Shown here in pieces: positions 11,165 to 19,598 of a stretch of DNA of 32,000 bases; within the stretch, counting starts at the first letter, position 1, and each line of letters opens with the position of its first letter. Under the pieces are notes generated by a model, which made no database searches, was not told the DNA's origin, and saw nothing but the letters and a program-made list of their open reading frames with translations. The stretch is from an uncultured Sporolactobacillaceae bacterium (GTDB lineage Bacteria; Bacillota; Bacilli; Bacillales; Sporolactobacillaceae): contig CAVYYW010000027.1 in assembly GCA_963772845.1 (NCBI GenBank), forward strand, positions 39,086 through 71,085, in the 5' to 3' direction. The position numbers and the translations under genes are program-made.

Positions 11165-11406
11165 AGATGGGGTAGAGGTCGCGGTTTTTAATAGTAGGGC
11201 GCTGAGACGATGGATGTCTTTGAAGCTGCCTGAAAGGATCAACCGCCGAAGTCTGGACAGGTATCCACACCTGACAGGCTGGGGCTGTTCCCAAACAGGG
11301 GCAGAACTGTCACATGGAGTATTTTTTCCATGTGTTGAGCTATCGATGGAAGGTCTGGATGGGGCTTTTTTCTGCCATCGTGTCGAGCATTCGCGATGGT
11401 TTTTTT
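11165..11406 (+). promoter_or_regulatory. Lysine riboswitch (L-box) with a terminator expression platform
   Basis: Conserved L-box blocks appear in order: AGAGGTCGCG, AGTAGGGC, GAGACGATGGAT, CTGAAAGG, CGCCGAAG, GCTGG, ACTGTCA. These are followed by a terminator stem CCATCGTG (11375-11382) / CGCGATGG (11392-11399) plus T7. An alternative pairing partner ATCGATGG sits at 11342-11349. Confidence 0.85.
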
Positions 11407-14628: not shown

Positions 14629-15546
14629 ATGAAAGTCTTTGAAGAAGAGGAGCGGATGTTCATCATGGCACAGCAAAAGATTATCGGTTTCGCAGGCACA
14701 GGTGTGATGGGTCAGGGAATGGTCAGGAATCTGCTTGGAGCAGGTTACCGGGTCAATGTTTTTAATCGCACAAAACAAAAGGCTCTGCCATTAATTGAAG
14801 AAGGCGCTTCATGGTTTGATACGGTAAAAGGCCTTGCTTCACATTCGGATATTATCATCACTATGCTTGGTTATCCTGAGGATGTGGAATCCGTTTATTT
14901 TGATAACGGGGTTCTTGACCATGCGAAAGAAGGCACGGTTTTAATCGATATGACCACATCTTCGCCACAATTAGCCGCAAAAATTAGTAAACACGCAAAG
15001 GAAAAAGGTCTTGCCGCTCTGGATGCACCCGTGTCGGGAGGCGATATCGGGGCTAAAAACGGTACGCTCTCTATCATGGCAGGCGGAGACGAAACGATTT
15101 TTGAAGACGTGCTTCCCGTCCTTGAAACAATGGGGAAAGAAGTGGTTTATCAGGGCAAGGCAGGCTCTGGCCAGCATACGAAAATGTGTAACCAGATCAC
15201 AATTGCATCGAATATGATGGGAGTCTGTGAATCTCTGTTGTATGCCAAAAAAGCGGGCCTTGATGAGAAAACGGTGCTGAGAAGCATTACAGGCGGCGCA
15301 GCTGGAAGCTGGTCATTAACAAATCTGGCACCAAGAATTCTGGATGAGGATTTTGCTCCCGGGTTCTATGTAAAGCATTTCATCAAAGACATGAAAATCG
15401 CTTTTGAGTCAGCAAAGGAAATGGGGATGAAGGCTCCCGGGCTCGAACTAAGCCTCTCGCTTTATGAAGAGCTTGCTGAAATGGGCCAGGAAAACGCAGG
15501 CACGCAAGCGCTTTATGAACTTTACGAAAAGAAAATGCAAAGCTGA
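14629..15546 (+). CDS. NAD(P)-dependent beta-hydroxyacid dehydrogenase family (3-hydroxyisobutyrate dehydrogenase-like)
   Basis: GFAGTGVMGQGMVRNL Rossmann motif and DAPVSGG are present. The true start is probably ATG 14656 or 14665. Confidence 0.85.
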   Translation: MKVFEEEERMFIMAQQKIIGFAGTGVMGQGMVRNLLGAGYRVNVFNRTKQKALPLIEEGASWFDTVKGLASHSDIIITMLGYPEDVESVYFDNGVLDHAKEGTVLIDMTTSSPQLAAKISKHAKEKGLAALDAPVSGGDIGAKNGTLSIMAGGDETIFEDVLPVLETMGKEVVYQGKAGSGQHTKMCNQITIASNMMGVCESLLYAKKAGLDEKTVLRSITGGAAGSWSLTNLAPRILDEDFAPGFYVKHFIKDMKIAFESAKEMGMKAPGLELSLSLYEELAEMGQENAGTQALYELYEKKMQS

Positions 15547-15563
15547 TTTTTGGCAAGAAACAG

Positions 15564-15592
15564 GCTGTCGAGACATCTCGACAGCTTGTTTT
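15564..15592 (+). terminator. Rho-independent terminator
   Basis: GCTGTCGAG..CTCGACAGC followed by TTGTTTT. Confidence 0.8.
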
Positions 15593-15700
15593 GCTCTATA
15601 AAATTTTAAGTAGTCCCTGCGGGGTGTTCTTGGAACGCTGATGAGGCCACTGAAAGAGACCACCTTTTTTGATGTGTTTGTTGATTTCCGCTCTAGACTG

Positions 15701-15952
15701 CTCGCTTTCCACGGGCACGGCCTCAGCTAACTTTGGCGTGGGCTCTTTGTGCCAAAGTGGATCTTCGAGCGCGTGCTGCTTCCGTAGGACTTGAAACAGC
15801 CTCCTTGAATCCACACCGCACGAAGAAAATGCGTTTGCTTTAGATTGAAAGCTGAAATACCCTCGCTTTCCACGGGCACGGCCTCAGCTAACTTTGGCGT
15901 GGTCTCCTTGTTTGCCAAAGTGGATCTTCGGACGCGTGCTGTTTCCGTAGGA
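15701..15952. repeat. Two direct copies (161-bp period) of a ~90-nt imperfectly palindromic module
   Basis: Copies are at 15701-15789 and 15862-15952 (CTCGCTTTCCACGGGCACGGCCTCAGCTAACTTTGGC..GCCAAAGTGGATCTTCG..CGTGCTG.TTCCGTAGGA). An inverted copy is at 26242-26332. The central hairpin is CTTTGGC/GCCAAAG. Confidence 0.9.
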
Positions 15953-16225
15953 GTCTCGGGTATTTCTAGCTTTCAATCTGCATGCGCATTTCGAGGAGTC
16001 ATGGATATTTCTGGCTTTCAATTGTAGGCATGCATATTTTCGAGGAGTTTCGGGTATTTCTGGCTTTCTCTAGGCATGCGCATTTTCGAGGAGTCTCGGG
16101 TATTTGCTTTCAAAGCATGCAATTTTCGAGCGCATTGCTGCATTTTCGAGGAGTCTCGGGTATTTCTAGCTTTCAACTCAGGGCATGCGTATTTTCGAGG
16201 AGTCTCGCGTCTTCCGCTTCAATCA
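15951..16225. repeat. Tandem array of 6 units with 45-60 bp period
   Basis: The unit is GAGTCTCGGGTATTTCTAGCTTTCAA..GCATGC..ATTTTCGAG. Unit starts are 15951, 15996, 16045, 16091, 16151 and 16200. Confidence 0.9.
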
Positions 16226-16498
16226 ACGTCATGTGATGTCCTTTAGAAGTCAATTATTGCTACGCATGCCTTCAGGATGTGAATAGGTTCGCCGGTGGCA
16301 CAGGACGTGACAAATTTAGCCAAACTTTCTACATAATTTTGCGCTGCCTTTAGAATTCCAGGGGACTTTGCGTTATTCTTTGATTAAATCTTAAAAAAGA
16401 TCAATAATATAGAAGTTTTTCAGTTGCCTCAGTCTGATCCCGCAGATGTCTCACCCTTCAGATAAATTGGCCCAAAAATGCAATAATCAGCCCGAAGA

Positions 16499-16547
16499 AC
16501 AAAAAAGCGTGCCACACAATTCTCTTTTGAGAATGTGTCGGCACGCT
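16499..16547 (-). terminator. Strong hairpin that reads as a minus-strand Rho-independent terminator inside island B
   Basis: AGCGTGCC.ACACA.TTCTC / GAGAATGTGT.GGCACGCT forms a ~18-bp imperfect stem. On the minus strand it is followed by T6 (plus-strand A-run 16501-16506). Confidence 0.7.
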
Positions 16548-16732
16548 GCTTTAAAAAGACTTTTTTTGGCATCTCGCTGATTGCGCTGAAATTGAAATAA
16601 CACCTTTTGGAACCACACCGACAGAACGCTGTATTGGCAAAGGCAGTCAAAAAGAGAGTGAAATGTCCTTAATGAGAGGGAGGAAGACGTTCGTCGGGGC
16701 AAATGCGCATCCCTATTGATGAAAGCTAAAAA

Positions 16733-16884
16733 CTCGAAACTCCTTGAAAAAGCACATGCTCACTGAAAGGCAGGAATACCTGAGACTTCTCGAAAATGCT
16801 TTGTGCTCCATTATAAAAATGGAAATACTTGAGACTCCTCGAAATTGCCCGTGCTTATTGAAAGCAAGAAATACCCGAGACTCC
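16733..16884. repeat. Three units of the 15951-16225 array in inverted orientation
   Basis: Units 16733-16789, 16790-16838 and 16839-16884 end in GAAATACCCGAGACTCC, the reverse complement of GGAGTCTCGGGTATTTC. Confidence 0.85.
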
Positions 16885-17100
16885 TGCAAGAATCAGCGTT
16901 CCAAGCGAGACCCCACAGCCACAATGTCTTATGTGAGGAGGCTCGCGGAACGCCTGCGGAAAGCGAGGGTATTTCCGCTTTCAATTATGACATCGCATTT
17001 TCTTCGTGCGAAATCACAAAAATCGGAATTTTCTAGTGTCAGTTTCGCTATTTTAGTTGTTTACAAGTATTTATTAAGCGTTATTCGGCCATTTTTTTGC

Positions 17101-18668
17101 TTATATCGTGTAGCCTCCGAGCATAAGCGTCACAAATAGCGTGTCAATAATGATAAAGTACACAATCTCAGGCAGCATCTCCCAGTACTCTGTTCTAACA
17201 AAACGTGTGATCAGACCTGAAACCAGCGCTGCTGCTACGGCGATCAGATAAGGACTGCCGGTGAAAGTTCAAATAAAAAGGCAGTTCTGATGGGATGAGC
17301 TTTGGTATGAGAAAATCGTACAGGTAGATGAACTGCGAAATGAAAAAGATAATATAAGTGCCCCATCGGACAAAGGGGGCGCCATTTTCGACAGCTGTCG
17401 TCTTTGCAAAATAGCAAATGAAATAAAAGAGCAAGGCAATGAGCGAATAAATTAGTGCAAAGAACACTGCAAAAATATTAACCGACAGTATGATCAGGGC
17501 ATTTGAGATGGCCTGGCCGATATCATGCTGAGTCGCTTTGATACTTTTGGCAATCGCCTTGGCGTTCGTACTTGCGGCATAAAGTTGATAATGATTTGCT
17601 TTTTGATAACCAAGCCAGATAATCAAGTTATTGCTCAATTCCTTTGGCTTGATCGACTGGTTATTCGTACTGTGACGTTCAGCAAGAGCCGTCCCATTAT
17701 TATTGAGAATTGCAGAATAGACGACCTGTCCGTCATGATGAAATGACAGGGTACCTTGTGATGCGAACGTAATCTTATCCTTGCCGTTGATGACCGTGTA
17801 GCTAAGATCATTTAATTCCTGGATAGGTTCATGACCATCGGCTGTGTAGACATCAAAATGATGTTCGGACCATTCCGGTTTTCCGGCTGCAATCGCATGA
17901 GCGCTGACATCGGACATCATGTAAGTGGTTGTAATCGTGCTGCTGTAAGTCGTCTTTGAATATAACAAATGCACAGAATTTGGCGTCACAGAAAACATAA
18001 AACCGCTGTATCGTGCAGAGGGATTATTAAACGTGTGAAGCAGTGAATGCGGATACTGCTTGCCGTCTTTTTTAAAGTAAATAACTTTAGTTTCTTTATC
18101 CTTGTTTAACGTTGCAATGAAATCCTGACTGTTCGCACTGGTGACAAGTTCTGATACTGGAAGATTAAAAGATCCAAGGGTCTTAATATCTCCCAGTAGC
18201 AGGGTCAGCTTCTTTCACGATCGGCCCTGAAGAATAAATAATGTGGTCATTGTCTGCGGGCATAAGCTGTGCAGCATGTGAATCAAGTATTTTGGTATGA
18301 CCCTTCGTATACTCAGTGAGCTTGCCGTTTTTTATGTAAATTAACGTGCTTCCTTTAGCCCAGATGCCATCATTGTCCGGGTGAACAGGGTAGGTATGGT
18401 TGGTCAAAATATCCATGGAAGGGGAGACCTCGACTTCAGAGATTCCCTTCTTCGTTACGGCATAAATGGCGGTATTGCTCCCGCGTTTCTGTGTGAAAAG
18501 CTTTGCTGAATCCGTCATGTCCTTCATTGGAAGGGGAATGGAGCGGCTCCAGTTCTTCGAAGGCGGGGTTTCTAAATTGTTCAGTTGCTTTAATGTAAAC
18601 AAACCGAAAATGATAATCAGCACAATCAGGGGTAAAAACCATACGGAAATTTTTCTGAATAGATTCAT
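17101..18668 (-). pseudogene. Membrane protein of unknown function (N-terminal TM, extracytoplasmic domain, C-terminal multi-TM region), split over three frames
   Basis: ORF 18183-18668 continues in another frame as GDIKTLGSFNLPVSELVTSANSQ..., joining ORF 17195-17998. After ~17268 a third frame continues TFTGSPYLIAVAAALVSGLITRFV...GGYTI* to the stop at 17101-17103. The candidate shift sites are CCC 18192-18194 and TT 17268-17269. Confidence 0.7.
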
Positions 18669-18836: not shown

Positions 18837-19598
18837 GTGAACGAGCAAATAGACGAGGTGCTGTTCGTTGAGGGACAAGCAGAAAATGGTTATACTTATT
18901 TTAACAACGAATCTGGAAAGGGCGTGTTGTTGGCGGGGACTTTTATATTAGCCTTAATTGGTATTATAGTGATTAATATTGTCTTAAGCGGTGATAATGC
19001 CGTGGTAATTGCTCTCGCATGCCGAAATCTTCCTGACAAGCAGCAAAATAGAGCGATCTTATGGGGCAGCGTCGGGGCCATCGTATTAAGAATTATTTTG
19101 ACATTTATAGCGGTTTGGCTGCTGCAGATCCCGTTTCTGAAAATAATAGGCGGGTTGCTTCTTATTTATATTTCTATAAATTTACTGGCTGATGATACTG
19201 ATCCTGATTTAAAAGGAAGCTCGAATATATGGGGAGCAATCCGAACCATTATTATTGCAGATCTCATTATGAGCCTCGATAACGTTGTAGCAGTAGCAGG
19301 TGCAGCACATGGGAACATTGCATTAATTATCCTAGGGCTTGCAATCAGCATTCCCTTGATCATTTGGGGAAGCAAGCTGTTGATGAAGCTGATGGACCGT
19401 TTCCCGGTCATTGTGATGCTTGGCGCTGCCTTACTCGGCTACACGGCCGGGGAAATGCTGACTAGCGACAAAGCTGTTGCTCACTATATAGCCGGCACTG
19501 CTCTGCCTTGGGACTTGATAATATCTGTTATTCTCGCTATTGCAGTGGTCGCAGCAGGACTATTGATTAATAAAAATAAGAAAACATCTGAACGATAA
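18837..19598 (+). CDS. TerC family integral membrane protein (YjbE-like)
   Basis: Duplicated LSGDNAVVIAL and MSLDNVVAVAG motifs are present. The start is uncertain: GTG at 18837, or a GTG/TTG near 18927 after GGAAAGGG. Confidence 0.85.
   Translation: MNEQIDEVLFVEGQAENGYTYFNNESGKGVLLAGTFILALIGIIVINIVLSGDNAVVIALACRNLPDKQQNRAILWGSVGAIVLRIILTFIAVWLLQIPFLKIIGGLLLIYISINLLADDTDPDLKGSSNIWGAIRTIIIADLIMSLDNVVAVAGAAHGNIALIILGLAISIPLIIWGSKLLMKLMDRFPVIVMLGAALLGYTAGEMLTSDKAVAHYIAGTALPWDLIISVILAIAVVAAGLLINKNKKTSER

Follow-up and report, generated by a model that had tools for sequence, protein, structure and literature searches.

The 32,000-nt stretch analyzed here (the window; G000:C27:39086-71085, G000 being the genome that carries it) comes from an uncultured Sporolactobacillaceae bacterium and contains Island B, a block of repeats at 15618-17011 in the 1,648-nt spacer between two convergent genes. 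Island B is probably a local pile-up of non-coding mosaic repeats that occur throughout the genome and derive from a MITE (miniature inverted-repeat transposable element) with a hairpin core. We read the island as two separate arrays that accreted in a gene gap, closest in kind to BOX, BIME (bacterial interspersed mosaic element), and bcr1 repeats (PMC3184786). The original prediction had described mirrored tandem arrays around a core, a 134-nt hairpin, and a layout resembling one composite element with inverted ends. The features it named were found within a few bases of where it had put them, far beyond chance, and the inverted matches are better than expected at random (best ungapped score 33 vs. 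a maximum of 14 in 30 dinucleotide shuffles). However, the island could not be upheld as one composite unit. Its modules are dispersed, parts of its core are single-copy, the terminator of a neighboring gene lies inside it, and the compositions of facing arms are unrelated.

A genome-wide family of repeat modules

A BLAST comparison of the spacer with its own genome returned 1767 high-scoring segment pairs, and essentially only three stretches of the spacer were single-copy (16447-16486, 16567-16643, and 17027-17194). Ten modules were defined by two rounds of nhmmer on the window genome. The hairpin module M has 310 copies, the linker L 281, the tail unit Ut 236, the head H 235, and the tandem unit U 199. 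Mv, an alternative hairpin that stands in the place of M, has 94, while B1, C4, C2, and T have 69, 48, 47, and 29, respectively. Every module of the two arms is a dispersed repeat with 94-310 copies, and jointly the ten cover 96 kb, or 2.5% of the genome. Their arrangement follows a grammar, H - M - (L - M)n - (U)n - Ut, and 1064 of 1142 adjacencies keep one orientation, with 78 mixed. This fixed order with tandemly variable internal modules is BOX-like or BIME-like. H is followed by M in 144 cases, M by L in 106, L by M in 89, M by Ut in 111, U by another U in 79, and U by Ut in 69; the commonest stand-alone element is H-M-Ut (33 occurrences). An end motif, GGCCACTGAAAAAG, has 361 genome copies at up to two mismatches and favors inverted pairs (64 vs. 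17), mostly spaced 200-330 nt apart. Island B itself ranks third in size among 44 large mixed-orientation clusters. Copies of M lie between convergent genes more often than the background would give (28% vs. 13.5%).

Neighboring M copies in the same orientation are more alike than random pairs (0.935 vs. 0.888, p = 2e-14), which points to local tandem duplication. In the island, the two M copies of the left arm share 0.92 identity and recur with a period of 161-163 nt (direct repeats D4 and D6), so the L+M block was evidently duplicated in tandem. Word searches of the literature on repeats in these genera, on repeats in Bacillus, and on the Rfam motif Bacillaceae-1 turned up no description of this repeat family. 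The present analysis adds the module grammar, the orientation rule described below, the finding that M is widely conserved and covaries, a MITE signature in a relative, and the identity of one module as Bacillaceae-1.

A conserved hairpin and the signature of a mobile element

In a scan for the exact pattern with one genome per species, M was found in Pullulanibacillus, Lederbergia, Halobacillus, Gracilibacillus, Virgibacillus, Aquibacillus, Amphibacillus, Lentibacillus, and Sediminibacillus, among others; the remaining modules are mostly confined to the lineage of the window genome. An alignment of 60 M copies from many genera has two nearly invariant loop sequences (GGCCTCAGCTAAC and GTGGATCTTCGG) and variable stems. 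Across its 22 base pairs, 95.0% of alignment cells are paired. Shuffles reach 83.1%, and slid partners 36-41%. Fourteen of the 22 pairs have changed on both sides, giving 127 double-change cells where 33 were expected. A covariance model built from this alignment (R1) matches 46 of 151 sampled genomes of the order, representing 37 of 85 genera, usually with many copies each. Conservation of the M hairpin, with compensatory changes, extends over many families of Bacillales, and Rfam has no counterpart for it.

Evidence that elements built on M move as DNA comes from Lederbergia graminis (G153, loci L121-L129), which has more than 25 near-identical copies. In the ten that were aligned with their flanks, similarity begins and ends sharply around 187 bp. 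Both termini carry the inverted repeat GCTCTGTTAAA.., and in eight of nine copies the element is bordered by a 7-9-bp AT-rich direct repeat of the flank. The element consists of short terminal inverted repeats (TIRs), two complementary subterminal arms, and the central M hairpin. Target duplications of 8-9 AT-rich bp indicate that it moves as DNA, and in combination with the TIRs they are a signature of DDE-type transposition. The near identity of the copies points to recent activity. Several of these insertions directly adjoin the T-tracts of terminators.

The L. graminis element can be related to the modules of the window genome. A comparison of consensus sequences places homologues of the end of H and the start of Ut on either side of M in L. 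graminis, and the 5' part of Ut lies beside M in both Lederbergia and Pullulanibacillus. U is a variant of the element's right subterminal arm, amplified in the left arm of the island. In size and copy number the family also resembles a MITE, with elements of 187-330 nt, modules in 94-310 copies, and island open reading frames (ORFs; 16429-16650 on the minus strand and 16744-17139 on the plus strand) that have zero Pfam matches.

Candidates for a mobilizing enzyme were also considered. The sole Y1 (RAYT-like) transposase gene of the window genome lies outside the window (G000:C18:20821-21399, 192 aa), and the gene after it encodes a highly repetitive, coiled-coil-like protein. RAYT was rejected as the mobilizer, as no module lies within several kilobases of the Y1 gene and the distribution of such genes does not track that of M. 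For example, the M-rich genomes G012 and G009 have no RAYT-like homologue, while G014 has four and no match to a left-arm DNA query containing M, and G007 has three and only one weak match to the left-arm query (E 5.3e-4). In the M alignment, only a minority of copies read GTAG at the foot of the hairpin, the others having GCAG, ATAG, or ACAG, so the GTAG/CGTC tag is not conserved. A parent insertion sequence should end in GGCTCTGTTAAA, and searches for one of the ISL3 or IS6 type gave no element with matching ends. In G153, ISL3 yielded a degenerate match without the ends and IS6-type searches gave zero matches; in G000, no IS6-type match exceeded the cut-off. Draft assemblies may hide a parent.

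Several points weigh against a pile-up of MITE-derived repeats. Target duplications or sharp ends were not found for the copies in the window genome, where duplications are unreadable because the flanks outside the GGCCACTGAAAAAG motif are themselves repeats. The ISL3 and IS6-type searches yielded no transposase with matching ends, and G000 has zero multi-copy transposase genes. The order of insertions in the island is inferred rather than observed. The strict orientation rule set out in the next section is not predicted by independent random insertions, which implies some coupling between arms that an account by accretion leaves unexplained. Finally, loops conserved across many families are unusual for the interior of a MITE and hint at constraint beyond mobility. 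One tentative idea, which we hold to be possible although somewhat less probable than even, is that M is an undescribed structured element whose loops and covarying stems form the recognition site of a mobilizing or host protein. M and Bacillaceae-1, the latter as a repeat module instead of a small-RNA gene, would then belong to one mosaic system, and the polarity of the arrays would reflect orientation-coupled insertion or dimeric transposition.

Orientation of the arrays

Where oppositely oriented arrays occupy one intergenic region, 66 regions have them tail to tail and none head to head; eight are complex. The same polarity is seen when only M is counted, with 79 neighbor pairs in the same orientation, 17 convergent, and 0 divergent. 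The tails-in regions lie between tandem (41), convergent (23), and divergent (2) genes, and single arrays have no sense bias relative to tandem genes (157 vs. 142); orientation is therefore not set by gene direction. Un-modelled sequence on the tail side accounts for most of a tendency of heads to lie nearer the gene. Terminators do not anchor the orientation either, given that in L. graminis they occur on either side of the element (two on the head side and two on the tail side of nine). The facing arms of Island B are thus one example of a rule that arrays of this family follow throughout: heads out, tails in.

The heads-out layout that suggested a composite element to begin with is real and recurrent, while its interpretation as a single unit finds no support. 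In its most explicit form, this interpretation would make Island B a foldback-type mobile unit, a tail-to-tail doublet with heads as its outer ends that has expanded and partly decayed. Such an origin would account for the complete lack of heads-in regions (66 vs. 0), for the mirrored outer modules of the island, and for the near M pairs of other genera, which are all convergent too. It has a parallel in Gracilibacillus lacisalsi (L091, L101, L023), where two M subtypes lie tail to tail around a conserved spacer of ~210 nt (M> - 210 nt - M<) and this doublet is itself repeated as a ~440-nt unit; the G. lacisalsi doublet is a dimer-like element. We nevertheless find a foldback unit unlikely for Island B. 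The right arm has no head module, and a motif scan found the head motif GGCCACTGAAAAAG neither in that arm nor beyond the partial L at its outer end. The one inverted pair of end motifs (15645 and 16428) encloses 784 nt (15645-16428), that is, only the left arm, B1, and C2. The core holds single-copy DNA (16447-16486 and 16567-16643) and a terminator that belongs to the neighboring gene. Across the 66 tails-in regions, whose inner gaps range from 0 to 724 nt, the compositions of the two arms are unrelated, and M-type and Mv-type arms pair as expected by chance, so a specific pairing of arm types was rejected. An origin of the arms by inverted local duplication was rejected as well, since convergent M copies from a shared region resemble each other no more than random pairs do (0.901 vs. 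0.888, p = 0.22).

Layout of the island and its possible history

On the left, the island adjoins a dehydrogenase gene (14629-15546, plus strand) of the 3-hydroxyisobutyrate/6-phosphogluconate type, with the Pfam domains NAD_binding_2 and NAD_binding_11; on the right, a membrane-protein gene (17195-17998, minus strand) converges on it across the island. Directly 3' of the dehydrogenase stop codon (15546), a terminator-like hairpin on the plus strand (15558-15591, inverted repeat I22) marks the left island edge. Its 16-nt arms are 94% complementary and enclose a 2-nt loop, it is flanked by an A-tract and a T-tract, and BLAST against the genome found zero further copies. From here the module order is H M L M U U U U U Ut B1 C2 T C4, followed by inverted U U U U Mv L(partial).

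The left arm lies on the plus strand. H (15618-15700) carries the end motif GGCCACTGAAAGAG at 15645-15658, and its first 26 nt resemble the 3' half of Mv. M copy 1 (15701-15789; R1 score 87.5 bits at G000:C27:54787-54874) is followed by L (15790-15861), M copy 2 (15862-15952; 86.2 bits, 92% identity with copy 1), five U units in tandem, each 45-60 nt long (15949-16197), and the tail unit Ut (16198-16262). A six-unit array had been predicted here and six there are, starting at 15949, 15994, 16043, 16089, 16149, and 16198, the sixth being the divergent terminal unit Ut. The units were delimited by splitting on the unit start AGGAGT, by nhmmer, and by Tandem Repeats Finder, which on 15949-16105 reported a period of 46, 3.4 copies, and 80% matches.

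The core modules are B1 (16266-16335, minus strand), a degenerate Bacillaceae-1 copy; C2 (16375-16428, plus strand), which ends in the inverted motif GTTTTTCAGTTGCC (16415-16428); T (16498-16563, minus strand); and C4 (16644-16693, plus strand), a minor repeat called by nhmmer.

The right arm, on the minus strand, has four inverted U units at its inner side (16690-16885). Mirrored units had been expected at this place, with a count of three; we count four (16885-16840, 16839-16791, 16790-16745, and 16744-16690). Three of them were called by nhmmer and the fourth (16839-16791) came from splitting on AGGAGT. They match the left array in the inverted repeats I1 and I2, with arms of 68 and 70 nt that are 82% and 79% complementary. 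Beyond them lie Mv (16886-16951, by nhmmer) and a partial L (16952-17011, model positions 27-71 of 71 by nhmmer; I5 and I19), which is the outer end of the arm. The outer mirrored modules named in the original prediction (15618-15643 and 16890-16917, I23) are real and have an exact 14-nt core in common, and two more mirrored pairs were found at 15844-15877/16952-16985 (34 nt, 91%) and 15817-15833/16994-17010 (17 nt, 100%).

If the island formed by accretion, the ancestral convergent spacer would have been short, with one terminator per gene. One element may then have inserted between the two terminators, and tandem duplication would have raised the L+M block to two copies and the right arm U of the element to five or six, producing the present left arm. 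A second, incomplete array (L-Mv-U4), placed between the membrane-protein stop codon and the terminator of that gene, would have become the right arm. The closest relatives that could be compared belong to other genera, with dehydrogenases 62-69% identical. In two of them, the dehydrogenase and membrane-protein genes converge across only 67 or 353 nt with zero module matches, and in three others the dehydrogenase gene is followed directly by a homologue of the ORF at 18837-19598. Such short spacers fit a lineage-specific filling of the gap, at a distance too large to show whether the island arrived in one piece. A search for close strains and for RNA data found one soil metagenome with 8% of the sampled words and zero RNA runs, and no contig with the exact proteins is on record.

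Terminators, transcription, and folding

The strong hairpin predicted in the core (16506-16547, inside T) has a folding energy of -28.4 kcal/mol (z -5.45). A U6 tract follows its stem on the minus strand, which makes it a predicted terminator of that strand. With a GC-rich hairpin and a U-tract downstream of a same-strand gene, module T is a predicted intrinsic terminator, here that of the membrane-protein gene. Among the repeated copies of T in the genome, a gene is transcribed into 25 of 27, usually 9-93 nt after its stop codon. In the island, 632 nt separate T from the stop codon of the membrane-protein gene, a stretch that contains the right arm and C4; the right arm is thus wedged into the gene's 3' untranslated region in sense orientation. 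The membrane-protein mRNA would likely carry a repeat-filled 3' tail of ~650 nt. The promoter-like block that had been suspected in the core was found by a pattern scan inside C2 (TTGATT-17-AATAAT, 16380-16408).

B1 links the island to a known RNA motif. The Bacillaceae-1 match (RF01690, 16269-16335, minus strand) scores 34.2 bits, below the gathering score of 35, while 53 other copies in the genome pass it (35.5-77.5 bits; the 12 best B1 copies score 63-78 bits). In an Rfam scan of the island, this sub-threshold match was the only one, and M, U, and the other modules remained unmatched at E values up to 1. Within the family, 37 genomes hold 0-89 matches each, patchily even within one genus, and in the window genome the module is usually fused to Mv. 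Rfam lists Bacillaceae-1 as a small RNA (sRNA) gene, whereas in the window genome it has the behavior of a dispersed repeat module.

The 134-nt hairpin at 15844-15977 was borne out and folds strongly on both strands, with a minimum free energy (MFE) of -55.1 kcal/mol (z -5.2) on the plus strand and -57.0 kcal/mol (z -7.9) on the minus strand as RNA, and -29.9 kcal/mol (z -5.7) as DNA. Its origin lies in the modules. Consensus comparison shows the 3' half of L, which provides the 5' strand of this hairpin, to be the reverse complement of a U unit. Every M is consequently bracketed by complementary arms, and the 134-nt hairpin is the conserved M hairpin lengthened by its L and U flanks, a property of the family rather than a local curiosity. 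The outer right arm (16886-17011, minus strand) folds at -44.7 kcal/mol (z -2.8). When the whole 1.5 kb is folded as one free strand, ~150 of ~200 MFE pairs of the left array go to the right array on either strand; the two terminators in the spacer argue against a transcript that would span both arms.

These folds raise the possibility that the arrays act as RNA, as repeat-filled untranslated regions or as a small RNA, with hairpins and AGGAG/GGA motifs that bind a protein such as CsrA or that protect or process the message. The covariation of M is strong, and outside one lineage-specific pair its G-U wobbles favor the M-sense strand (32 vs. 8). Pair 27/90, however, has 18 A-C mismatches on the M-sense strand, which would be G-U on the other strand, and a DNA hairpin recognized in transposition would be expected to covary in its palindrome just as well. 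The right arm, in sense orientation, follows a stop codon and precedes a terminator, and the promoter-like block stands ~90 nt upstream of the T hairpin on the plus strand; across the genome, however, arrays lack a sense bias relative to tandem genes. On the array-sense strand, B1 is the reverse complement of Bacillaceae-1, and the GGA loops of that strand have been proposed to bind CsrA (PMC4333381). The genome has a csrA gene. In the Bacillus cereus group, bcr1 is a repeat that is transcribed and shows compensatory changes (PMC3184786). A single U unit, on the other hand, folds no better than shuffles (z +0.57). On balance, we doubt that an RNA function explains the island, and nothing we saw points to a function for the entire island.

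The nested palindromes had also been taken as possible cruciforms. The folds themselves are real and the long inverted matches exist, with the 134-nt palindrome folding well as DNA, but extrusion of the inverted arms, or their use by the cell as a recombination or replication-pausing site, is very improbable, as arms only ~80% complementary and 620-710 nt apart make an implausible cruciform by general knowledge of extrusion, the local hairpin has large asymmetric internal loops, and the locus is not distinguished from 65 others of the same layout.

Comparison with known repeat families

We regard the mosaic family as closest to three groups of bacterial repeats, none of which it equals. BOX elements of Streptococcus pneumoniae (boxA, repeated boxB, boxC) are non-coding, modular, and intergenic, with head, tandem internal, and tail modules; like the arrays described here, they form strong hairpins and reach hundreds of copies without a transposase of their own. 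The BOX features used in this comparison are general knowledge, beside the review cited for these families. There is no sequence relation between the two. The present family has more module types and a ~90-nt hairpin core common to many genera, and a related copy, in L. graminis, has clear TIRs and target duplications.

The REP (repetitive extragenic palindromic) sequences and BIMEs of enterobacteria and the REPINs of Pseudomonas are likewise mosaics of palindromic units with defined orientations and specific linkers, in which inverted doublets form units. REP sequences and BIMEs also prefer the 3' ends of genes and convergent spacers, as the present family does (PMC3184786). However, units here are ~90 nt rather than 20-40 nt, the GTAG tag is not conserved, and the RAYT-like gene is not flanked by repeats; the signature is instead of DDE type (TIR and 8-9-bp duplication).

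The bcr1 and other group A repeats of the Bacillus cereus group are small, non-autonomous Bacillales elements with short direct repeats at their flanks, and compensatory changes keep their cruciform-like fold (PMC3184786). Their sequence is different, as is their duplication (5 bp vs. 8-9 bp), and the present family forms long modular arrays and reaches across many families of the order instead of one species group. Bacillaceae-1 itself is matched by one island module and by the 53 further genome copies. Unlike the sRNA gene described in Rfam, it is a dispersed module here and a minor part of Island B.

Implications for annotation and additional observations

As the inverted 1.5-kb structure is an ordinary product of a repeat family, annotation of Island B as a separate gene, regulatory element, or transposon is not warranted. 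The repeat family, in contrast, is worth recording. It makes up a substantial part of the genome, has a conserved hairpin core, and follows a polarity rule that can now be tested, and it places the orphan Rfam motif Bacillaceae-1 in the context of mobile repeats. Arrays of this kind enlarge the space between genes, give rise to long 3' untranslated regions, and cause breaks in assemblies.

Some observations concern the genome and the surroundings of the island. On small contigs of G000 (C10, C13, C20, C21, and C25), several housekeeping-like gene families occur in 3-5 copies with at least 80% identity, and the estimated contamination of the genome is 6.5%; the assembly may mix two related genomes or hold large duplications. 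The minus-strand ORFs at 17195-17998 and 18183-18668 jointly match one 464-aa membrane-protein gene of a relative (L006 2432-3826), so the gene is split here, by a frameshift or a sequencing error. Elsewhere in the window, an ordinary lysine riboswitch (11165-11350, plus strand, 101.8 bits) lies upstream of an amino-acid permease gene.

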